A stretch of DNA of 64,000 nucleotides from Bdellovibrionota bacterium (GTDB lineage Bacteria > Bdellovibrionota_C > UBA2361 > JBIKUX01): positions 1 through 64,000 of the forward strand of contig JBIKUX010000013.1 in the NCBI GenBank assembly GCA_044347345.1. The letters run 5' to 3'. Below are positions 37,805 to 48,518 of this stretch, one piece after another. The notes beneath the pieces are model-generated. The model saw only the letters and a program-made list of their open reading frames with translations, was not told the origin of the DNA and searched no databases. A program made the translations under genes and the position numbers. Position 1 is the first letter of the stretch, and every line of letters begins with the position of its first letter.

Positions 37805-38929
37805 CTAAAATTCTTCAAAAGTACCGAGATCTTTTTTTGGATTAGCACTAGGAGAATTAGAGTTGCCGGTCAAATCAGAAATTTTAATTCGCCAATCTTT
37901 AATAGATTCTAAGCACTGAGGCGTATATCGTCCGTACTCAGCACAAGCAATGCCTGGAAACTTTGGAATAACTTTACGACCACTAGATAAAACTCTTTGA
38001 CACTCTTCACTGATATAACGACTACGAACGAATGGAGCATTTGGTAAAAGAATCGCCTTTATCGTAGTGCTATCTTCTTCCGTCACAGATGGAGAATTTG
38101 CTACACCTAGCCTAATGCCATTTTCAGTTCGATCATTTTCTTTAAAAGTCATCGGATTCAAAACTTTTGACTCAGGAACCAAGCTTGAGGCTGACATTGT
38201 AGGAGGAGATTCGATATCAAACTCTTCTTCACTACATTCAAGAACAATTAATCGATTAAGTATTCTTACTGCATTACGGTGATTCATTAAAAATGTTTCG
38301 TACTTTTCCTGATCCTCTTTAGATGGGGGATTCAAGAGATACGAGCTTTTTTCAAATTGCCGGAAATCTCCCTTTAATTGACTTTTCACAACAGATATTT
38401 TTTTACCTCTCGTCTCAGGATCGGCAAAACTAGGCTGACGCAAGACTCCAGTACGCTGCACAATTGTAATTACGGCATTTCGACATGATGGGGAGATAAA
38501 ACCGTCTCTGGCACACACACCGGCCGAGTTGCTTGGATGAAGCCTTAAAAGTTCATTTCGCGCTTGGATACATTCGTCAGTAACTTTGTTAGGATTATAG
38601 GACAGAGATACATGGAGATTAGTAAAGCACTCGTGGTACACCTTACGTTCATGATTGTAAAGAATCGCAGAATAATTAGAAGGTGACGGATCGCTGCGAT
38701 ATTTACTCTCCGACTGCTTAATCGCAAGAGTTAAGAGTTCTCTCAGAGAAGCCCTTCGGTCCTGAGTAACATGATTTTTTCCATCTACATTTGAATCTTT
38801 AATGTTGTTGGGGCTGACGGTAGAACTAGGTTGCGAGTAAGCCTGACTTAAACTCAGAAATATCAGGATTAAGAGCGTAAAACATATAAGAGACAAATAT
38901 GAAAAATATCTTTGAGAACGGAATGTCAT
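37805..38929 (-). CDS. Hypothetical secreted Cys-containing protein
   Basis: Signal peptide from MTFRSQ...SQAYSQ; internally repeated C.....(l)..P....CA.dG...P.C motif. Confidence 0.65.
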   Translation of the reverse strand: MTFRSQRYFSYLSLICFTLLILIFLSLSQAYSQPSSTVSPNNIKDSNVDGKNHVTQDRRASLRELLTLAIKQSESKYRSDPSPSNYSAILYNHERKVYHECFTNLHVSLSYNPNKVTDECIQARNELLRLHPSNSAGVCARDGFISPSCRNAVITIVQRTGVLRQPSFADPETRGKKISVVKSQLKGDFRQFEKSSYLLNPPSKEDQEKYETFLMNHRNAVRILNRLIVLECSEEEFDIESPPTMSASSLVPESKVLNPMTFKENDRTENGIRLGVANSPSVTEEDSTTIKAILLPNAPFVRSRYISEECQRVLSSGRKVIPKFPGIACAEYGRYTPQCLESIKDWRIKISDLTGNSNSPSANPKKDLGTFEEF

Positions 38930-38930
38930 T

Positions 38931-39809
38931 ATGAGAATCCTCCTCACACTGATAAGTAGAATCGTTGGTTGGGCATCACGTCTTGAATCACCTGCGTTTG
39001 CCGCTAAATTTGCCCTAAAATGTTTCATTTATTCAATTAAACCTAATGTAAAGGAGGCAGCTAAACCGCTTAACCAATATTCGTGCATTCATGACTTTTT
39101 TACTCGCTCTATTCGTCCTGAACTTCGTCCAATAGCTTCTTGCTCTTTTGTGTCCCCAATAGATGGAACGCTTTTGGCAGTAACCCCTGTAAACATTGAG
39201 ACAACCCTGGAAATTAAGGGTCTTGATTATTCAGTCTTTGATCTACTTAGTCCGCTATTTTCAGAAGTAACACAATCAAACTTACAAGGTTACTCTGCCT
39301 GGCATTTCTATCTCTCCCCAAAAGATTACCACCGAGTGCACTCTCCATGCGAGGGAGTTATTGAAGCTGTCGGCTACATTCCAGGCACTTTGTGGCCCGT
39401 CACTAGTTGGGCCCTACGTCTTATACCAAAACTTTATACTAAAAATGAAAGGGTAGTAATACAAATCACTAGGCCTTCAGGAGCCAAAATTTTTGTCATA
39501 TTGGTTGGAGCTTTAAATGTTGGCAACATTACTCTAGCGATTGAACCTAAACTAGAAACTAATCCACGGATACTAGTTAATAATAGTTCAATACTAAATA
39601 AAAATCTTCAATGGATGCCACAAGCAAAAAAGTTCTCATACATGCCAGCTCGAAAGGTTGTTAAGGGCGATGAGGTCGGAATATTTCATCTTGGGTCAAC
39701 AGTTATACTTCTCTCCCCAGACAATGAATTTAAACCATCAGCATCCTTGGTTACAACAACCGAACTATTAAAAAAGCCAATCCAGTTTGGCCAATCTTTA
39801 CTTACATAA
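38931..39809 (+). CDS. psd: Phosphatidylserine decarboxylase proenzyme
   Basis: FFTR.I.PE.RPI, SPIDG, YLSPKDYHRVHSP, KNER, VGALNVG.I and the FHLGSTV cleavage motif. Confidence 0.95.
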   Translation: MRILLTLISRIVGWASRLESPAFAAKFALKCFIYSIKPNVKEAAKPLNQYSCIHDFFTRSIRPELRPIASCSFVSPIDGTLLAVTPVNIETTLEIKGLDYSVFDLLSPLFSEVTQSNLQGYSAWHFYLSPKDYHRVHSPCEGVIEAVGYIPGTLWPVTSWALRLIPKLYTKNERVVIQITRPSGAKIFVILVGALNVGNITLAIEPKLETNPRILVNNSSILNKNLQWMPQAKKFSYMPARKVVKGDEVGIFHLGSTVILLSPDNEFKPSASLVTTTELLKKPIQFGQSLLT

Positions 39810-39861: not shown

Positions 39862-41607
39862 CTACGGCTTACTATTTATCCGAGGTAAAATATCACTCAA
39901 AAGTCCCTCTGATAAGGCAATCATTCTGTGCAAAGGAAGAGTTTCTCTCAGACACTGAGCGATTTGTTGCCACCAACCTTGTAAAGAGCGGTCAGCTGTA
40001 AGCCATATTTTCTTTTGAAGAGAGGTAAGAATAGCTTGCTTTGATATGAAAGTAGCCCACGCTGAATCAAAGTCTTCCAAAACTGAGTTCTTTACCAGAG
40101 GCACAATTTTATTTATGAAAACGTTTTCCTCATATAGGAGAAAACCTATACTAAGAGCCTCGAAGGCTTGAAACGATTTGTCAACCAAGGAACCTACGCT
40201 CCCAAAATCACGCACTCTAACGGATGGTAGAGCAGCCACATTACGCTTAAAAAGATAAGCAAGAATTCCAAAATAATGCATTAAAGTAACTGAACTTAAA
40301 AACGGTGCGTTTGGTGAAATAAATTGAAGAAGAAGCTCTCTACTTGTTATAAGACCAAATGGTAGGACTGTCGTCGTTAGTTGCAACTCATTTGGCTCTA
40401 TACCGATATATTCGTGATCACAAGATGCAAAAGATAATTCCTCGTGCCTTAAAATACATGTCAGATCAAGTGGTGCTGTTCGTGCTACCACAGAAGTCTT
40501 ACAGGCACCATTTTCTTTTCTTACTCCACCAAAGGTTATAATGTCAGCATCTCCGGCAACTAGAGGTTTAAGCGCTTGAGCTAAATATGCTTTTGATAAA
40601 AAACCCGACTGTGTAATAATTGCTACATAATCACCAAGACTCTCTCCTATCAAATCAAGTAAATTTGAATTTCGTGATTGATCTGGAGAAACATATCTAA
40701 TTAAAGATGAACAAGCTTTAATCTTAGTTTTATCGTAGCATGGGCTAGATCCACATAAAATCTCAACATTCTGATAACCTGCCTGCTCAACAACTGATGA
40801 AAGAAAAAAATGGAGCTTATTGATATCTTGCGGTAAATCCGGAAGACAAATACTAATAAGATATTTTTGATTGTCTAATATTGTGTTAGTATGGCTTGTT
40901 TTCTTCTGAAGCGACCCGATGTTTTTATTACTTTTAGTTCCATATTCAAATACCTTAATATCTATCGAATATGTATGACTTGATACAAATGTTTCCTCTA
41001 TTTCTACCTTGTACCATGAGATAGGCTTAAGGTGGGATAGATTTTTACAGCGTAAAAGCCATTTTCTTCTCTCCTCATTAAAGCCAAGAAGATTGGAAAT
41101 GTTTAAGCCTAACTGAGCTATAATGAGTGGAAGACCGCTAAAAAAATCCGGTAATTCATACCAAGTAAAGGGTCTAATTGTCCTATTATAATATTCCCAG
41201 GCCTGCCATGACTCATGAATCGCCTGTAATGCGGGCAAAAAATTCTTTTTTCCCTCAATAAGTAAAGCCGCTTTTAAAAAAAAATAAATAACCTGTTCCA
41301 TACCGGCTATACCGATAAAAGTGTAGTCCACTCTAAATTCATTACAAGTGAGGTCTTTCGGTATAGGGGCTGATTCAACGGCTAAATACTGAGCGGAATA
41401 TTGAATGAGTGCATTATCAAGCTCGTAGATATCATCTTCACTTAGAGCGCAAATTCCATATAGCAAACACAGAATCGCAGAATTATTACACTCACTTTTA
41501 AGTAACGGAAGGGCTAAAGAACTTTCTCCGGCTGAAAGCAATCTAAATGAAGCTCTGATAATTCTATCCTGACCCTGAACCTGAGGCTCATCTTTTATCC
41601 TGTCCAT
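39862..41607 (-). CDS. Hypothetical protein with helical N-terminus and degenerate GT2-like domain
   Basis: LISICLP...SVVEQ.GYQNVEIL...GDYVAII resembles a GT2 fold but has no DxD. Confidence 0.5.
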   Translation of the reverse strand: MDRIKDEPQVQGQDRIIRASFRLLSAGESSLALPLLKSECNNSAILCLLYGICALSEDDIYELDNALIQYSAQYLAVESAPIPKDLTCNEFRVDYTFIGIAGMEQVIYFFLKAALLIEGKKNFLPALQAIHESWQAWEYYNRTIRPFTWYELPDFFSGLPLIIAQLGLNISNLLGFNEERRKWLLRCKNLSHLKPISWYKVEIEETFVSSHTYSIDIKVFEYGTKSNKNIGSLQKKTSHTNTILDNQKYLISICLPDLPQDINKLHFFLSSVVEQAGYQNVEILCGSSPCYDKTKIKACSSLIRYVSPDQSRNSNLLDLIGESLGDYVAIITQSGFLSKAYLAQALKPLVAGDADIITFGGVRKENGACKTSVVARTAPLDLTCILRHEELSFASCDHEYIGIEPNELQLTTTVLPFGLITSRELLLQFISPNAPFLSSVTLMHYFGILAYLFKRNVAALPSVRVRDFGSVGSLVDKSFQAFEALSIGFLLYEENVFINKIVPLVKNSVLEDFDSAWATFISKQAILTSLQKKIWLTADRSLQGWWQQIAQCLRETLPLHRMIALSEGLLSDILPRINSKP

Positions 41608-41744
41608 GTTATCTTACTTACTAACTGACCTACCTATCTTGTTACTTGGTGAACCTCTTACCAACTGCTCTAATCTGTCGAAAAATATGAGCAAGAATGC
41701 CGAGGAAAATAGAATTTAATTGTGTTAATAGTAGGTTATGCCAC

Positions 41745-41801
41745 CTAGCATACTTTTTGCTCTTATAATATAAAAATGTCCTCAGCTGCCAATATTTTGG
41801 C
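41745..41801 (+). promoter_or_regulatory. flgB promoter: atypical sigma54 -24/-12 element plus downstream 14-bp palindrome
   Basis: CTAGCATACTTTTTGCT (41745-41761) and GCCAATATTTTGGC (41788-41801); the same architecture recurs before fliE. Confidence 0.65.
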
Positions 41802-41850
41802 GATGTATAAAAAAGTGTCGCTTAATTTTTTAAGGCAAAGGAAAGTACCC

Positions 41851-42255
41851 ATGAGCATAGTAGACCAACTATTTGGAAGTCAGGTAACCGGTCTTTCAAA
41901 AATGCTGGATCTGAGTTGGCGTCGACACAAAGTCATAACTTCAAATATAGCAAATGCAGAAACACCTCAGTATAGAGCCGTAGATTTACACTTTGGGAGT
42001 GAGCTTGAGCGCGCATTTGATCAGTATCAAGGAGTTACTGCTCGAACCAGCCCACAACACCTAGAAGTATCTACTGAGAGTGTGGCTCATTTATTACCAG
42101 ACTTAACGGGTGCTACCAAACCTGACGGTAACAACGTAGATCTTGATATACAAATGGGTCAACTATCCTATAATAGCGGTAAATACTCACAGGCATCTGG
42201 GATACTACGCAGAAAATTCGAAAGAATCTCTAGTATAATTAGAACGGTAGCTTAG
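41851..42255 (+). CDS. flgB: Flagellar basal-body rod protein FlgB
   Basis: RHKVITSNIANAETPQYRAVD, DGNNVDLD. Confidence 0.95.
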   Translation: MSIVDQLFGSQVTGLSKMLDLSWRRHKVITSNIANAETPQYRAVDLHFGSELERAFDQYQGVTARTSPQHLEVSTESVAHLLPDLTGATKPDGNNVDLDIQMGQLSYNSGKYSQASGILRRKFERISSIIRTVA

Positions 42256-42257
42256 CT

Positions 42258-42686
42258 ATGAGTGATATTTACGAAATATTAGCAGCTGGAATGAGCGCGG
42301 CTAGACTAAGAGTAAATGTACTAGCTTCAAATATTGCTAATGCTGAAACATCCAAGACGGCTGAAGGTGGACCTTATAAAAGACGTGACATTGTTCAGAT
42401 AGCACAAACGGTAAAAGGTGAATTTACCGATGCGCTTGACACAATGACACTGATGAGACCAGCCGTACTTGCAGTAGTTGAGGATCAAACAAACCCAAGG
42501 TTAGTTCATCAACCAGGGCATCCCGATGCAGACGCCGACGGCATGGTATCTTTTCCAAATATCAATGTAGTCACCACTATGACAGACCTTATGGCGGCAA
42601 GCCGCTTATATCAGGCTAACGTTACAGCTCTGGAAACAGCTCGCCAGATGTCTGATGAAGCTAAGCGGATTTCTGTTCGCTCTTAA
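42258..42686 (+). CDS. flgC: Flagellar basal-body rod protein FlgC
   Basis: GMSAARLR..V.ASNIANAET...GGPYKRR, PGHPDAD..G.V.FPNIN, ASRLYQAN. Confidence 0.96.
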   Translation: MSDIYEILAAGMSAARLRVNVLASNIANAETSKTAEGGPYKRRDIVQIAQTVKGEFTDALDTMTLMRPAVLAVVEDQTNPRLVHQPGHPDADADGMVSFPNINVVTTMTDLMAASRLYQANVTALETARQMSDEAKRISVRS

Positions 42687-42726
42687 AAGAAGGAAACAAC
42701 ACTGATAGAAACCTTAGATACTTCCT

Positions 42727-42784
42727 CTAGCACAACTCTTGCTTACTTAAGGATTTAAATCACCAAAATTGTCAATGTTTTGGC
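42727..42784 (+). promoter_or_regulatory. fliE promoter: atypical sigma54 -24/-12 element plus downstream 14-bp palindrome
   Basis: CTAGCACAACTCTTGCT (42727-42743) and GTCAATGTTTTGGC (42771-42784). Confidence 0.65.
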
Positions 42785-42860
42785 ACAATAAAGGCGATCT
42801 TAAAAAGCTATAAAGCTGAAAGTTATACTTGCGAAGCAAAGATATCGAGGCAAGAAGAAT

Positions 42861-43184
42861 ATGTCTGTAGACAGTATCTCGAAAGCACTAAAAGGATTTT
42901 CATTTGAGCGAATTTCTCAGCCCCTTTTAGAGAAAAAAACTAATATTAGTGAATCAACTCAAGCCGGATTCAGCGAAGCTTTAGAGAAAGCTCTTGAACG
43001 AGTAAATAGTCTTGATGTACAAGCTGAAAATCTGGTTGCTCAGGCTACATCTGGTAAAAAACAAGTCGCTCCTCACGAACTTATCTTATCTTTGGAAAAG
43101 GCAGATGTTGCATTTGAGCTTATGAATAAAGTCAGGCAACAAGTAATAAGAGCCTATGAGGAGGTGATGAGAACCCCAATTTAA
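42861..43184 (+). CDS. fliE: Flagellar hook-basal body protein FliE
   Basis: F...L..AL..VN, HEL....EKA...FELM.KVR..VI.AYEEVMR. Confidence 0.93.
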   Translation: MSVDSISKALKGFSFERISQPLLEKKTNISESTQAGFSEALEKALERVNSLDVQAENLVAQATSGKKQVAPHELILSLEKADVAFELMNKVRQQVIRAYEEVMRTPI

Positions 43185-43213
43185 TAGTAGAAATTTTATA
43201 GTGAGCCACAATT

Positions 43214-44941
43214 ATGGCAAAGCCGCCACGATCAAGTTTTGACTTATCTGCTTCTTTTGCTCAATTAATTGATGCTTATTTGAAGCTACCATTAAATCAA
43301 AAAATATTATTCCCATTTCTTTTAGCACTATCAGTGTGGGCGATTGTTTTTGTAGCGCAATGGGCGAATAAAGCTGATTATGTGGTATTATTCTCAGACC
43401 TTGAGTCAGCAGATGCTGGAGCCGTTATTGAGCGATTAAAAACAATGAAAGTAGCTTATGAAGTTCGTGGTGACGGCCGAACAGTAGCTATATCTCCACC
43501 CGAGATGGTTCATGAGATGAGACTACAACTTGCCTCAGAGGGAATCCCTTCAAAAGGGACAGTTGGATGGGAGGTATTTGATGGTGTCAGTTTAGGGCTT
43601 ACCCAACAACAAGAATGGTCACTCCGTATTCGTGCTAAGCAGGGAGAGCTAGAAAGAACTATAGCGGCACTTGAGGCGGTGCAAGCAGTTCGAGTGCACA
43701 TTTCTGAGCCAGAACACCGCGGTTTTGGTAAAAATGAACAACAAGCCACTGCATCAGTACTACTTAGATTACGCGCTGGAGGGGAACTCGATCGCAAGCA
43801 GATAAAAGGAATAGCAAACTTAGTAGCAGGTAGCGTTCAGGGTTTAAAGCCGGAGAATGTTACAATTATTGATAGTAACGGTAACCCACTCACACAATCT
43901 GAGGAAGAGCGCAAAAATGAACTTGATGGTGGTGGAGAGTCTTACCGTATTGAATATCAAAGAACTGTTGAAAGAGGCTATATTGATAGGATTGAGCAAA
44001 TGCTACAAAAAGTGCTTGGTCCAGGTAAAGCCGTAGCTAGAGTAACGGCGGATATAGATTATTCGAGCAGTGAACGAGAGGAAGAAAGCTATGATCCTGG
44101 AGGTCAAGTTATTAGATCAGAACGTACTATAGCAGAGGGAACAGGTGCATCTCAGCGAGGTGGAGTTCCAGGCGTTACAAGTAATCTTAGTAACGATCCA
44201 AATCTATTGTCTCCACCAAAAAGTGACGGCGAAAACTCAAAACGAAGCGAAAGCGTCAAAAATTATGAAGTATCCAGAGCAATCACTAAAAGTGTTGCAC
44301 CTCGAGGAAGTGTCGTAAAACTTTCAGCAGCTGTTCTTGTAGATGGTACATACGAAGAGCCGACAAGTACAACAGAATCTGCATCACCATCCGAAAAACC
44401 GTCTGAAGAAGCTCCAGCTCAAGAAAAGGAGACCGCTTCGCAAAAAAAAGTTTTTAAACCACTCGATGCAGAAACCCTTGCTCGAATTGAGGGTATAGTA
44501 AAGGGTGCGATAGGCTTTGATTCCAATAGGGGTGATTCTGTAACCGTTGAGAGCATTCCTTTTTATCAACCCGACCAAAGTCTTGAAGAGTCCCTAAAAA
44601 GTGCGGAAATGTGGCAAAATATCTTCGGTATTTCATCTAGAATCCTACCTGCACTATTTGTCTTTATCTTTATCTGGGCCTTTGTACGTCCACTTCTTAA
44701 CTTTATATTAACACCATCTGAGGCAGAGACAGATTTAAATAGACTTCTACCTAAGGGAGTTTTTGAACTTGAGAAAGAACTGGATGCTGAACGAACAAAG
44801 GCTACAATTCCTGAATTTGAGCCAACCATTGACCTTGAGCAACTAGAAGAGCTCATGTCTGAGAACTCTCGAATTGTAAGGGAAAATCCGCAACAAGCTG
44901 CTCTTCTCATAAGATGGTGGTTAAATGATGGAAGGTTATAA
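43214..44941 (+). CDS. fliF: Flagellar M-ring protein FliF
   Basis: Two TM segments, Y.VLFSDL, G.VGWEVFD, GELERTI, ATASVLL, NYEVS, GFDSNRGD and C-terminal P..AALLIRWWL. Confidence 0.96.
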   Translation: MAKPPRSSFDLSASFAQLIDAYLKLPLNQKILFPFLLALSVWAIVFVAQWANKADYVVLFSDLESADAGAVIERLKTMKVAYEVRGDGRTVAISPPEMVHEMRLQLASEGIPSKGTVGWEVFDGVSLGLTQQQEWSLRIRAKQGELERTIAALEAVQAVRVHISEPEHRGFGKNEQQATASVLLRLRAGGELDRKQIKGIANLVAGSVQGLKPENVTIIDSNGNPLTQSEEERKNELDGGGESYRIEYQRTVERGYIDRIEQMLQKVLGPGKAVARVTADIDYSSSEREEESYDPGGQVIRSERTIAEGTGASQRGGVPGVTSNLSNDPNLLSPPKSDGENSKRSESVKNYEVSRAITKSVAPRGSVVKLSAAVLVDGTYEEPTSTTESASPSEKPSEEAPAQEKETASQKKVFKPLDAETLARIEGIVKGAIGFDSNRGDSVTVESIPFYQPDQSLEESLKSAEMWQNIFGISSRILPALFVFIFIWAFVRPLLNFILTPSEAETDLNRLLPKGVFELEKELDAERTKATIPEFEPTIDLEQLEELMSENSRIVRENPQQAALLIRWWLNDGRL

Positions 44942-45058
44942 AGCTAGGAGTTATTGCTGAGTTCAAGTGAGCTGAATCTAACTATTCATAATATAGGCTC
45001 AGATTTTAAGGCAACAATAATGAAGTTCTTTATCACAAATAGTAGATAATCAAAGAAT

Positions 45059-45898
45059 ATGAGTGGCGATACTGAACATCCTTCATCTCAAATAGAGAGC
45101 TCTGAACCAAAGATAACTCAACTTAATCATGTAACATCACCCTTTATAGAGGCTGGATTTCCAATAATTGGTGATGTTAATGACAATTATCAATTTGAAC
45201 CTTTTAAAGCAGAATTGATTGGGGAAAATGACCTAAAATCTGATCCCATGTTTGAAATTTTCGCAGATTTTGAAAATAACCCGAGTAATATTCGGTGGCA
45301 CTTGCCGCCTGATATAGCGAAGCAGAAGCAGCTTGAACTAATTCAAGGTGACCAAGTCGAACAAACAATAACTCTAACTGTTAAGGAATTTGAAAATGAA
45401 ATAAAAAGTGCTACAGAAAAAGGAGCATCAGAGGGCTTCATATCTGCTCAAAATCAATTTGAAGAGAAACTTACAGAATCATCCAGACGTATCTTAGATA
45501 TTTTTGAGCAACTAAAAGAACAAATTGACGCATCTATAGAAATGATGCAGAGGAAAGCTGTTAAACTATCTGTAGATTTAGCTGGACAGATTCTTAATCA
45601 AAAAATTAACGAAGATCCATATTACTTGATACCCGTTATACGAGAGGCATTTGGTTTAGTATCAGATTCAAAAATATTTTCAGTAAAAGTTTCGCCTCAC
45701 GATTTTGAGTTTCTTGATAAGAGCCAACTTTTAGAAAAGCTCGGTCAGCAACAAGACACTTGGGAGTTTCTTCCTGACTCAAATATTGAGGCTGGTTGTA
45801 TTGTTGAAACAACAGCTGGTCAGATTGAGATTGATCTCTTATCAAGTTTTTCTCAGTTAAAGAATATATTGCTAGAGGAAGATGAACAATCCTCCTGA
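45059..45898 (+). CDS. fliH: Flagellar assembly protein FliH
   Basis: A..KG..EGF repeat region, VKVSP.D, D..I..GCIVET..GQI; directly upstream of fliI. Confidence 0.85.
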   Translation: MSGDTEHPSSQIESSEPKITQLNHVTSPFIEAGFPIIGDVNDNYQFEPFKAELIGENDLKSDPMFEIFADFENNPSNIRWHLPPDIAKQKQLELIQGDQVEQTITLTVKEFENEIKSATEKGASEGFISAQNQFEEKLTESSRRILDIFEQLKEQIDASIEMMQRKAVKLSVDLAGQILNQKINEDPYYLIPVIREAFGLVSDSKIFSVKVSPHDFEFLDKSQLLEKLGQQQDTWEFLPDSNIEAGCIVETTAGQIEIDLLSSFSQLKNILLEEDEQSS

Positions 45899-47204
45899 TC
45901 GCTTCGACAAAGCACTCCTTACAGCAAAAGAATTATCTCGTTTTAAGAAGCGGGGATCAGTAACAGAGATTAGAGGGCTTATTATCGAGGCAAGTGGCCC
46001 ACTTGCTCCCCTTGGATCTTCAGTAACGATAGAAGGGGAAAATCTATCTGCTCGAGCGCAAATTGTTGGTTTTACGAAGGAAAAAGTGCTTTTGATGGCT
46101 TATGATGATGTATACGGATTAGTGCCAGGAGCCTCGGTCATTTTTTCTTCAGGAGATAAAGAGGTAAAAGCATCACTGGATCTACTAGGACGAGTTGTTA
46201 ATGGCTTTGGCGCGCCAATTGATGGAGGACCAAGGATAAATTCCGGAGATTCTATTCAACTTTATCGACAACCTCCTAATCCACTCACCAGACGACCTAT
46301 TTCTCAGGTACTTGATGTTGGCGTGCGAGTTATAAACACATTACTTACTATTGGAAAAGGTCAAAGGCTGGGAATAATGGCAGGCTCAGGTGTAGGTAAA
46401 TCTACCCTTTTAGGAATGATTGCAAAGTATGCTGCTAGTGATGTGAATGTTATTGCTCTTGTCGGGGAACGAGGACGAGAGGTTCGAGAGTTTATTGAAC
46501 GAGATTTAGGAGCAGAGGGTAAAAAAAGATCAGTAGTAGTCGTTGCTACTGGAGATACCTCTCCTCTAGAGCGCCTTAGAGCTGCTTTTTTAGCAACTGC
46601 CTATGCAGAGTTTTTTCGTGACCAAGGTAAGAAGGTTATCCTGATGATGGATTCAGTAACGAGACTTGCAATGGCTCAACGAGAAATTGGATTAGCGATT
46701 GGAGAGCCTCCCAGTACTAAAGGTTATACTCCTTCAGTGTTTTCTATGCTTCCCAAACTTTTGGAACGCGCGGGTAATTGCTCTGGTGAAGGATCTATTA
46801 CCGGATTATATACAACCCTTGTTGAAGGCGATGATATGAACGAGCCCATAGCTGACGCAGTAAGAGGGATACTTGACGGACACATTGTGCTATCTCGAAA
46901 GCTAGCAGGAAGAGGTCATTTTCCTGCCGTTGAGGTTTTAGAGAGCGTATCTCGAGTTGTCAGAGATATTGTTCCAAGCGATGCTTTAAATCTTGCTCAA
47001 ATGGTTAGGGAAGTTTTAGCAACATATAAAGATACTGAGGATCTTATAACCATCGGCGCATACAAGCCTGGACAGAATAAACAAGTCGATCGAGCTGTGT
47101 CACTGTATGAGCCATTGATAAAGTTTTTAATTCAAGCAGCAGACTCAAAAAGTTCGATGGAGGAATCTTGGCAGCACTTGGTAAGTATCTTTTCCAAATC
47201 TTAA
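45882..47204 (+). CDS. fliI: Flagellar export ATPase FliI
   Basis: AGSGVGKSTLLGM, GERGREVREF, MDSVTR, GEPP..KGY, DGHIVLSR. Confidence 0.97.
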   Translation: MNNPPDRFDKALLTAKELSRFKKRGSVTEIRGLIIEASGPLAPLGSSVTIEGENLSARAQIVGFTKEKVLLMAYDDVYGLVPGASVIFSSGDKEVKASLDLLGRVVNGFGAPIDGGPRINSGDSIQLYRQPPNPLTRRPISQVLDVGVRVINTLLTIGKGQRLGIMAGSGVGKSTLLGMIAKYAASDVNVIALVGERGREVREFIERDLGAEGKKRSVVVVATGDTSPLERLRAAFLATAYAEFFRDQGKKVILMMDSVTRLAMAQREIGLAIGEPPSTKGYTPSVFSMLPKLLERAGNCSGEGSITGLYTTLVEGDDMNEPIADAVRGILDGHIVLSRKLAGRGHFPAVEVLESVSRVVRDIVPSDALNLAQMVREVLATYKDTEDLITIGAYKPGQNKQVDRAVSLYEPLIKFLIQAADSKSSMEESWQHLVSIFSKS

Positions 47205-47247
47205 ATTTTTTCTCGACGTTATCTTTAATTCTCAGAGGATATAGTTT

Positions 47248-47685
47248 GTGAAAAAATTTTCATTTCGATTAGAACGAATCTTGCAATACAGAAAACGATA
47301 CGAAGATGAAAAAAAGCGTCAATTAACTAATGCTGTTTCAGCACGCGATTTAATACTGGCAAAACAGCGAGAAATTTTAAAGTCTCTGGAGGAAAACGAA
47401 ATTCAAACTTCTGAAGAGCAATCTGCTGGAGTAGCACTACAAGGCTTATATGGTGCAGGGCTACTTGCACAACTTGCCCTCAGTGAACAAGAGATTATTG
47501 AACATGAGAAACGCATTGAAATTATCAAAAATGAATATATTGAGGCGATTAAAGATGTAAAGGTTCTAACTACCATTAAGGAGTCTAGGCTTGCAGAGTA
47601 CAATCACGACTTAGAAAAAGCTGAGGCCGCAATAATTGATGAACTAGCCACTCAACGCTCACCAAGAAAGAGGTACACGCTATGA
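47248..47685 (+). CDS. fliJ: Flagellar export chaperone FliJ
   Basis: MKKFSFRLERIL.YR...E, coiled coil, C-terminal IDELA; follows fliI. Confidence 0.9.
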   Translation: MKKFSFRLERILQYRKRYEDEKKRQLTNAVSARDLILAKQREILKSLEENEIQTSEEQSAGVALQGLYGAGLLAQLALSEQEIIEHEKRIEIIKNEYIEAIKDVKVLTTIKESRLAEYNHDLEKAEAAIIDELATQRSPRKRYTL

Positions 47686-48518
47686 AAAAATCTCGTCCAA
47701 CTATGTCAAAAGAACAAGCGATTGAGCTTTACAACGATCTCCACCGAACCATGCAACAAATGGTAAAAAATACCGCATCCATGAATCCAAAGACGGATTT
47801 ATCAAAAAAACCACAAAATAAAAATATTGATAAGGCCAGTACTCTGAAAATTTCAAATCATCCAAACGACTGGGAAGCTGAAGGTACCAAACTTAGCTAT
47901 AAATCGAGTTGGAGCTCTTCCAGTAAAGGAATGTTTTTAACAATAGCGGCTCTTTGTGCCATTCGGCTAATATTTGGTATAGCTGAGTTTTTGGGAGTCA
48001 ATATTTCTAAATTACAGGAAGCTAAGGCTGTAACCAAATCAGAGGTTACCCTTCAGAATACTCCTCGACTTCCTATGACCAATACAGAGCGAGATTTACT
48101 TTTGGATTTAGATCGTAGGCGAGTAGACCTCGAGAGCCGATCTGCTCGTCTCGATGACCGAGCCAAGGAATTAGCTGAGCAAGAAAAAGCATTATCTGTT
48201 CAGCTAAGTGAGCTCCGAGAGCTTACGGGTGCACTTCGTCAAGCTCGGCTCGAAAATTCAAAAGAAGAGTCCGCAAAAGTAGAACAACTCTCAAAAGTTT
48301 ACGGATCTATGAATCCACCTGAAGCCGCTGCCTTAATTGAACAACTAGACATTCAAATCGCTTTACCACTTTTGGTGAGAATGCCTGATAAGCGAATGGC
48401 ACAAATTTTAGCTCTTATGAAGCCAGAGAAAGCCGTACAGATCACTAGAATGTTATCCAGCACAAAATATGATTCATCACCTCTACCGAAACAGAGCGAA
48501 AAATCTAATCTTAAGTAA
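47682..48518 (+). CDS. MotE/FlbB (YlxF-like) flagellar protein with MgtE-N-like domain
   Basis: TM + coiled coil + LSKVYGSMNPPEAA.LIEQLD...L..M....A.IL..M.PEKA. Confidence 0.8.
   Translation: MKKSRPTMSKEQAIELYNDLHRTMQQMVKNTASMNPKTDLSKKPQNKNIDKASTLKISNHPNDWEAEGTKLSYKSSWSSSSKGMFLTIAALCAIRLIFGIAEFLGVNISKLQEAKAVTKSEVTLQNTPRLPMTNTERDLLLDLDRRRVDLESRSARLDDRAKELAEQEKALSVQLSELRELTGALRQARLENSKEESAKVEQLSKVYGSMNPPEAAALIEQLDIQIALPLLVRMPDKRMAQILALMKPEKAVQITRMLSSTKYDSSPLPKQSEKSNLK

Follow-up and report, generated by a model that had tools for sequence, protein, structure and literature searches.

The window analysed here, a stretch of 64,000 nucleotides from contig JBIKUX010000013.1 of the Bdellovibrionota bacterium assembly GCA_044347345.1, contains a flagellar operon that opens with flgB and includes fliE. 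A predicted sigma-54 promoter precedes each of these two genes and in both the first G of the GG dinucleotide at -24 is replaced by A, while a short palindrome follows downstream. Sequence comparison with related genomes indicates that the deviation is a property of one orthologous promoter, that of flgB, conserved across the whole order with the sigma factor unchanged. Taken as a whole, the observations are probably best explained by sigma-54 promoters in which position -25 is relaxed in a promoter-specific manner and which are served by downstream enhancer sites. The genome (hereafter G000), in which the window is contig C54, comprises 2,528,573 bases in 68 contigs, has a G+C content of 40% and is 95.8% complete; it encodes rpoN and enhancer-binding ATPases, as sigma-54 promoters require. 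The DNA and RNA sequencing runs that contain the stretch are lake or freshwater metagenomes.

The flgB promoter core, TAGCAT-N5-TTGCT, occupies positions 41746-41761 of the plus strand within CTAGCATACTTTTTGCT (41745-41761) and sits 90 nt before the ATG at 41851. G(-24) is at 41748 and C(-12) at 41760, inside the TTGCT of 41757-41761, and transcription is predicted to begin at approximately 41772. The palindrome GCCAATATTTTGGC (41788-41801) begins 28 nt past C(-12). It is a 14-bp GCCA-N6-TGGC element (GCCA-ATATTT-TGGC) resembling a FleQ box, presumed to be bound by a bacterial enhancer-binding protein (bEBP), and its centre lies at +34.5 from C(-12), or about +23 from the predicted start. The second module resides in the spacer between flgC and fliE. 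There CTAGCACAACTCTTGCT (42727-42743) harbours the core TAGCAC-N5-TTGCT at 42728-42743 of the plus strand, with TTGCT at 42739-42743, C(-12) at 42742 and a predicted start near 42754. The accompanying 14-bp element GTCAATGTTTTGGC (42771-42784; GTCA-N6-TGGC, GTCA-ATGTTT-TGGC) begins 29 nt past C(-12), is centred at +35.5 and is an imperfect palindrome, GTCAA standing against GCCAA. At both sites the -25/-24 dinucleotide is AG instead of GG, the second G being present; the two dinucleotides are separated by exactly 10 nt, GCAY follows the first base (TAGCAY-N5-TTGC) and the GC at -12 lies within TTGCW. The earlier note on this DNA had described TAGC at -24 in an otherwise consensus sigma-54 match before flgB and fliE, with a 14-bp palindrome starting 28-29 bp past the -12 GC, and both the sequences and their positions are as it reported.

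The combination is rare. In the window TAGCAY-N5-TTGC occurs twice against an expectation of 0.23, a number reached in 2 of 100 shuffles. Ten matches are present genome-wide, seven within open reading frames (ORFs) and one at the edge of a 72-aa ORF; on the crude ORF map that underlies these calls, the only clearly intergenic matches are the flgB and fliE sites. The composite GCAY-N5-TTGCW followed after 15-45 nt by G[TC]CA-N6-TG[AG]C is found exactly twice on the two strands of the genome, again at flgB and fliE. A looser genome scan (NNGC-N8-TGC-like) was uninformative with regard to -25, the intergenic/coding counts being A 51/241, C 21/153, G 42/162 and T 60/194.

Forty genomes of the same order, none of the same family or genus as G000, were searched for the orthologous promoter and flgB was found in 36 of them; public records of the closest relatives are mostly labelled as Bdellovibrionota or Bdellovibrionales metagenome-assembled genomes. 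Sites were picked blindly: every 16-mer within 260 nt before the start codon was scored at nine positions (-24 G, -23 C, -22 A, -21 Y, -15 T, -14 T, -13 G, -12 C and -11 W) and the best one was taken. Positions -26 and -25 were left out of the scoring so that the feature to be counted could not steer the choice of site; selection inflates the information content of the scored positions, but not that of -25. All of the 33 related loci have, at the corresponding place before flgB, an orthologous core that matches at least eight of the nine positions (29 score 9/9, as does the G000 site), in keeping with the sigma-54-type -24/-12 elements that the earlier note had recognized. The base at -25 in these loci is A in 14, T in ten, C in four and G in five, a few of the T loci allowing a second register that is considered below, and the position carries 0.2 bit of information. 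The sister promoters present a very different picture. Sites of at least 8/9 precede flgK in 28 of 30 loci, with G in 25 and C, A and T once each (1.5 bits; the single T row is a doubtful pick, a GG site being visible close by). For motA, 18 of 29 loci yield such a site, 16 with G and two with T (2.0 bits), and for fliD 12 of the 34 copies in 30 loci do, 11 with G and one, that of G000, with T.

When the loci are grouped by family, -25 of the flgB promoter is non-G in sixteen families, G throughout only in family f3 (3/3) and ambiguous between two registers in f16; at flgK, G prevails in 13 families and f6 is mixed. The f3 promoters (L016, L020 and L021) have the canonical GG at the same position, as TGGCAC or CGGCAT. 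Canonical GG is likewise found before flgB in outgroups whose records are labelled Oligoflexia, Acidobacteriota, Nitrospirota and Campylobacterota, for example L151, L160, L165, L166, L177, L192 and L194. From the occurrence of GG at the same position in f3 and in the outgroups it follows that the flgB site is, by descent, a promoter of the sigma-54 kind. At this promoter the first G of the -24 element would then be unconstrained throughout the order, with A as the base present in G000.

The palindrome, too, is shared with relatives. It belongs to a family G.CA-N6-TG.C, in the relatives mostly GTCA-N6-TGAC along with hybrids such as GCCA-N6-TGAC, and accompanies the core in 27 of the 33 related flgB loci, the other six being without it under the strict pattern; the enhancer-like, FleQ-box-type site proposed by the earlier note is upheld in this respect. 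Its placement is variable. In 24 of the 33 loci it lies upstream, with centres between -64.5 and -114.5 from C(-12) that cluster near -65, -83, -95, -106 and -115. A downstream position is seen among relatives only in L016 and L021 of family f3 (+33.5/+34.5, compared with +34.5 in G000), and a single order thus documents an enhancer whose position, measured from the -12 C, has moved from near -95 to near +34. The motA promoters of some relatives have the same upstream palindrome. G000 contains 15 intergenic or gene-edge G[TC]CA-N6-TG[AG]C sites, five of which stand at flagellar gene starts: in the flgB and fliE leaders, at the start of fliF, at +45.5 from the GG promoter of flhB, that is, one helical turn past +34.5, and at +93.5 for motA. 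Taken over all its occurrences, the pattern shows no enrichment in the intergenic DNA of G000. The fliF site, GCCA-N6-TGGC at 43205-43218, overlaps the start codon and may be either a second binding site or a product of chance.

FleQ recognizes a 14-bp pseudopalindrome, GTCaNTAAAtTGAC in Pseudomonas aeruginosa and GTCAaAAAAtTGAC in Pseudomonas putida, which consists of inverted GTCAAT/ATTGAC repeats with arginines modelled on the 5'-GxC ends (PMC6120874 and PMC10723142). The G000 palindromes share the length and frame of this box, with 4-nt ends around a 6-nt A/T-rich centre, and differ from GTCA-N6-TGAC at one or two end positions. The left halves, GTCAAT and GCCAAT, match the box, as the modelled contacts would tolerate either T or C in the middle of GxC; unlike the FleQ box, the right half is TGGC and not TGAC. 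Two other identities of the palindromes were tried and rejected. As sigma-28 -10 elements (GCCGATAA-like) they would stand 13 and 11 nt from TAAA, not 15. A shifted sigma-54 site starting inside the palindrome (TTGGCAC, 42780 onward) has no GC at -12, and the second-best site scores 6/9.

According to the preferred explanation, a bEBP bound at the G[TC]CA-N6-TG[AG]C palindrome would switch on transcription, from within the transcribed leader in G000 and from about 65-115 nt upstream of the -12 C in most relatives. FleQ sites downstream of promoters are reportedly the subject of Jyot et al. 2002, going by its title. In Vibrio cholerae the sites of FlrC usually lie downstream of the start and are true enhancers, as set out in PMC6504787. 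The palindromes at these sigma-54 promoters might instead be operators for a repressor or roadblock, parts of divergent promoters or hairpins of the leader RNA. Their location at +16 to +29, within the transcribed leader, would suit such roles, and FleQ is described as repressing some promoters from near-start sites (PMC6120874 and PMC10723142). Both RNA copies can form a 5-bp stem, in which the T/G mismatch becomes a G-U pair, and a minus-strand TTGGCA-16-TATTAT (41792-41765) scores 10/12 as a sigma-70-like promoter. However, sigma-70-like sites are no more numerous than chance predicts (three versus 3.3 expected), the leaders fold no better than shuffled sequences (z = -0.8 and -0.5) and the FlrC precedent establishes that an enhancer can work from downstream. 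Moreover, in the 24 loci with an upstream palindrome the element is neither leader RNA nor a roadblock. The upstream position in most relatives, together with the unremarkable folding, favours a DNA site bound by an activator and renders operators or hairpins unlikely.

Further palindromes were observed near the starts of other flagellar genes. Most flgK loci of the relatives (L037-L065) carry cGGCA-N5-TGCCg, 13-15 bp in length with a spacer of 5 and not 6, about 26-27 nt past TTGC; this looks like a second conserved class of downstream enhancer, for another activator. The flgK leader of G000 shows GAAC-N4-GTTC only. At motA of G000 (C63:63382-63397, L032/L066) a 16-nt near-palindrome, CCTGTTTTAAAACGGG, begins 9 nt past the sigma-54 promoter, and a perfect GTCA-N6-TGAC is located at C63:63459-63472, within the motA start.

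RNA evidence is available from four metatranscriptomic runs of one study, whose contigs were placed on positions 41000-43600. The leftmost contig starts, from three runs or samples, are 41794, 41798 and 41799. All four runs leave 41000-41793 uncovered, an interval in which the divergent gene starts (its first 608 bases are 41000-41607), so that the flgB operon is represented in the RNA libraries and its upstream neighbour is not. One contig extends from 41794 to 43243 without a mismatch, across flgB, flgC, the spacer and fliE. The 5' boundary in these strandless, assembled contigs lies 22-27 nt past the predicted start at about 41772.

The same boundary is relevant to the possibility that the -24/-12 sequence is a weak or silent relic and that flgB is read from another promoter, for instance one of sigma-70 type with the TATAAT at 41764-41769. 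This hexamer is perfect and stands 4 nt past TTGC, the start of about 41777 that it implies fits the RNA boundary as well as 41772 does, and sigma-54 should bind less well once a contacted G is lost, judging from PMC12096077. Yet no acceptable -35 accompanies it, and a scan of 41608-41850 revealed no sigma-70-like site on the plus strand. GC-rich relatives lack any -10-like sequence there, and TATAAT is missing from the corresponding offset in the fliE module. Above all, a relic would not be expected to keep at least eight of nine positions in 33 of 33 loci, and all nine in 29, with only -25 drifting. A relic is accordingly quite improbable.

The earlier note had attributed the deviation to an RpoN, or a second RpoN, whose -24 specificity had changed from GG to AG. 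Two identical deviations (TAGCA) within one operon could be taken to favour this view. There is also experimental precedent, given that the two arginines of the RpoN box contact GG in a base-specific manner, that engineered changes of the second arginine re-specify the -24 dinucleotide and that, with an altered -24 element in the promoter, the activity of wild-type sigma-54 was about 1.4% (PMC12096077, 2025). A Pfam Sigma54_DBD search of the 95.8% complete genome detects, however, a single rpoN, and its RpoN box is the canonical ARRTVAKYR with both arginines intact; the box is identical in 29 of 30 rpoN loci, that of G000 included, the thirtieth being interrupted by a contig end. The TAGC form is not enriched before other flagellar operons either, which carry GG, and the earlier note had itself named such a lack of enrichment as a refutation of its idea. 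At least seven GG promoters are present in G000, and GG-N10-GC sites precede motA (tgGCAT-N5-TTGCA), flhB (tgGCTC-N5-TTGCA), a flgM-like gene (tgGCCT-N5-TTGCT), flgK (tgGCAC-N5-ATGCT), a flagellin gene (tgGCAA-N5-TTGCT), an SLT-domain gene and a type IV pilin gene, the last with a canonical GGTGGCAC-N5-TTGCT. In the relatives, GG is kept at flgK, motA and fliD and not at flgB of the same genomes, and the flgB base varies among A, T and C instead of moving to one new base. GG at the other flagellar promoters and a canonical RpoN box indicate that it is the promoter that deviates and not the sigma factor. These data contradict a re-specified sigma factor, which may be regarded as excluded; an ordinary RpoN would read both the flgB and fliE sites. 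Chance resemblance in AT-rich intergenic DNA, which the 40% G+C content and the eight further TAGCAY-N5-TTGC matches might bring to mind, is likewise contradicted, by the restriction of the composite module to this operon and by the orthology of the core, and its probability is negligible.

Two side observations concern the sigma-54 promoters and proteins of G000. One of its two fliD genes (C32:50805-50820, minus strand; L035/L219) is preceded by a 9/9 core with T at -25 (ttGCAT-N5-TTGCT). This site was discounted as part of the phenomenon, relatives keeping G in 11 of 12 sites, and is either a private deviation or not the promoter. Beside the pilin gene is encoded a 690-aa protein (C5:24261-27758, L101) in which a PilS-like membrane domain, PAS, a sigma-54 activator domain and HTH are fused.

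Several points weigh against sigma-54 promoters with a relaxed -25 and downstream enhancers. The related genomes are non-independent samples, and four loci with T at -25 (L003, L012, L137 and L142) show a canonical GG-N10-GC once the register is moved by 5 nt, so that the true count of non-G flgB promoters may be a few lower. The RNA boundary, as mentioned, suits either of two starts. No separate start is seen for the fliE module in the RNA, where the contigs run through and one run begins only at 42878. Transcription might be blocked, not activated, by a protein that occupies +16 to +29. Finally, no FleQ N-terminal domain was detected by Pfam in the seven complete bEBPs scanned, a difference from FleQ itself, and no bEBP passes an NCBIfam equivalog cut-off.

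A further and more tentative proposal is that in this uncultured order the flgB promoter represents a distinct natural class of sigma-54 promoter, one at which a holoenzyme with an unchanged RpoN box works without the first G and whose -25 is free or is kept non-G in about 16 families, with GG retained at flgK, motA and fliD. If so, something particular to this promoter would have to offset the lost contact, for instance an accessory factor, the shape of the DNA or the flagellar activator. Alternatively, selection may have favoured a poor closed complex, so that transcription of the first rod/MS-ring operon strictly requires the enhancer that belongs to it. It is already known that sigma-54 controls flgB operons, that there are two-component activators for flagella and that FleQ-type boxes and downstream enhancers exist; also known are single natural promoters with a one-base deviation from GG. 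The latter are exemplified by Myxococcus xanthus, where asgE, spi and nla6 have characterized sigma-54 promoters that deviate by one base in GG or GC and MXAN3778 has GA (PMC7910581). The promoters described here resemble that set in breaking the GG rule by one base at natural sites. The M. xanthus cases are single promoters within one species, and in MXAN3778 it is the second G that is changed; the freedom seen here concerns the first G of one orthologous promoter in about 16 families whose sister promoters keep GG. In the engineered R456 variants of sigma-54 (Nucleic Acids Research 2025; PMC12096077), substitution of an RpoN-box arginine goes together with a new -24 dinucleotide; as G000 has both arginines intact, that mechanism does not apply. 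A literature search, its scope excluding supplements, found no promoter-specific, order-wide loss of the first-G constraint with an unchanged RpoN box, and none such was found among the titles and abstracts listed on RpoN flagellar promoters of Bdellovibrio.

The matter has practical bearing, as the -24 GG serves as a hard filter in nearly all predictions of sigma-54 regulons. With the first G varying at flgB and RpoN unchanged, such filters would miss the first flagellar operon in the whole group. If confirmed at the bench, the order would offer a natural series of variants of one promoter that differ in the base at -25 (A, T, C or G) and in the side on which the enhancer lies, upstream or downstream. 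On such a series could be tested the share of the first G in closed-complex formation and whether a weak -24 element enforces dependence on the enhancer.

As regards the activator, the genome yields eight strong Sigma54_activat matches, seven of them complete genes with a Fis-type HTH. Contig C37 carries four consecutive genes, for a receiver-less bEBP of 399 aa with AAA+ and Fis-type HTH, a TPR protein, a soluble histidine kinase of 252 aa and a REC-AAA+-HTH regulator of 491 aa, whose HTH is also of Fis type. In the relatives L019, L026, L027 and L029 a bEBP gene stops just before the flgB enhancer. The identity comparison covered L019, L026 and L029, whose bEBPs are 57-60% identical to the 491-aa regulator and share with it the C-terminal recognition helix LLGISIRTLRNKL; the L027 gene ends in the same helix. 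By neighbourhood and similarity, the most likely activator would be the 491-aa response regulator, acting with the soluble histidine kinase whose gene immediately precedes its own, with the receiver-less 399-aa bEBP as the alternative. An flhG/fleN-like gene is present in G000.

This arrangement recalls FlrBC of V. cholerae (class III: flgB, flgK and flaA), FleSR of P. aeruginosa and FlgSR of Campylobacter jejuni, systems of the same kind that, with sigma-54, drive flgB operons (PMC7064773). In common with FlrBC there is a soluble histidine kinase, a REC-AAA+-HTH regulator and sigma-54, acting on a rod operon that starts with flgB, and regulator sites that act as enhancers downstream of the start, a described feature of FlrC (PMC6504787), are predicted here as well. 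Unlike in FlrBC, the -24 element is without its first G. Unlike in Vibrio, the operon includes fliE-fliF-fliH-fliI-fliJ, which are master-regulator (class II) genes there. As a further difference, the regulator itself falls below every NCBIfam equivalog cut-off.

In Bdellovibrio bacteriovorus and in records labelled Oligoflexales or Pseudobdellovibrionaceae, a bEBP gene with the same Fis-type helix reaches or enters the start of flgB (L149, L152, L155, L157, L162, L179, L197, L201, L211 and L212). No -24/-12 core lies between the bEBP gene and flgB in these ten loci, which suggests that the two genes are co-transcribed there.

The fliE module appears to be a more recent acquisition. The flgC-fliE gap measures 174 bp in G000; among 27 loci of the relatives the estimate is 0-28 bp for 24, 55 bp for two and 109 bp for the remaining one. 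The short gap in relatives implies that the second module arose in the lineage of G000. An alignment of the two modules that spans everything from the -24 element through the palindrome needs just one gap of one base, and about half of the spacer positions are identical. The fliE module is probably a duplicate of the flgB module, an alignment of this kind being no proof in AT-rich DNA. It would act as a lineage-specific internal promoter that provides fliE-fliF-fliH-fliI-fliJ with an input of their own.

All genes of the operon are on the plus strand. The flgB gene (41851-42255, 134 aa) matches TIGR01396 with 88.4 bits against a cut-off of 59.05. Its start is placed at the ATG at 41851 and not at 41776, the start of the longest ORF, because the alignments with relatives set in at residues 1-3 of the protein read from 41851 and no RNA contig begins before 41794. 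It is followed by flgC (42258-42686), the lineage-specific 174-bp spacer that holds the second module (42687-42860) and fliE (42861-43184); flgC and fliE both match NCBIfam equivalogs above cut-off. A terminator-like hairpin with TAATTTTTTA after it occupies 41799-41822 of the flgB leader, downstream of the palindrome and ahead of the ribosome-binding site; two such sites occur in the region, a number not above that of shuffles (0.9 +/- 1.1). An Rfam scan of 41500-43000 returned only a below-threshold, chance snoRNA-like match. Divergent from flgB is a gene for 581 aa (39862-41607, minus strand) and beyond it one for 407 aa (37805-39028, minus strand), neither of which matches a Pfam or NCBIfam family. 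The remainder of the operon (43214-48518) consists of fliF, fliH, fliI, fliJ and an MgtE_N-domain gene. It is without fliG, only a 117-bp gap (window 44942-45058) separating fliF from fliH; fliG is found elsewhere, on contig C37 (55642-55956, L217), and a second, shorter FliG_C match is located on C27.

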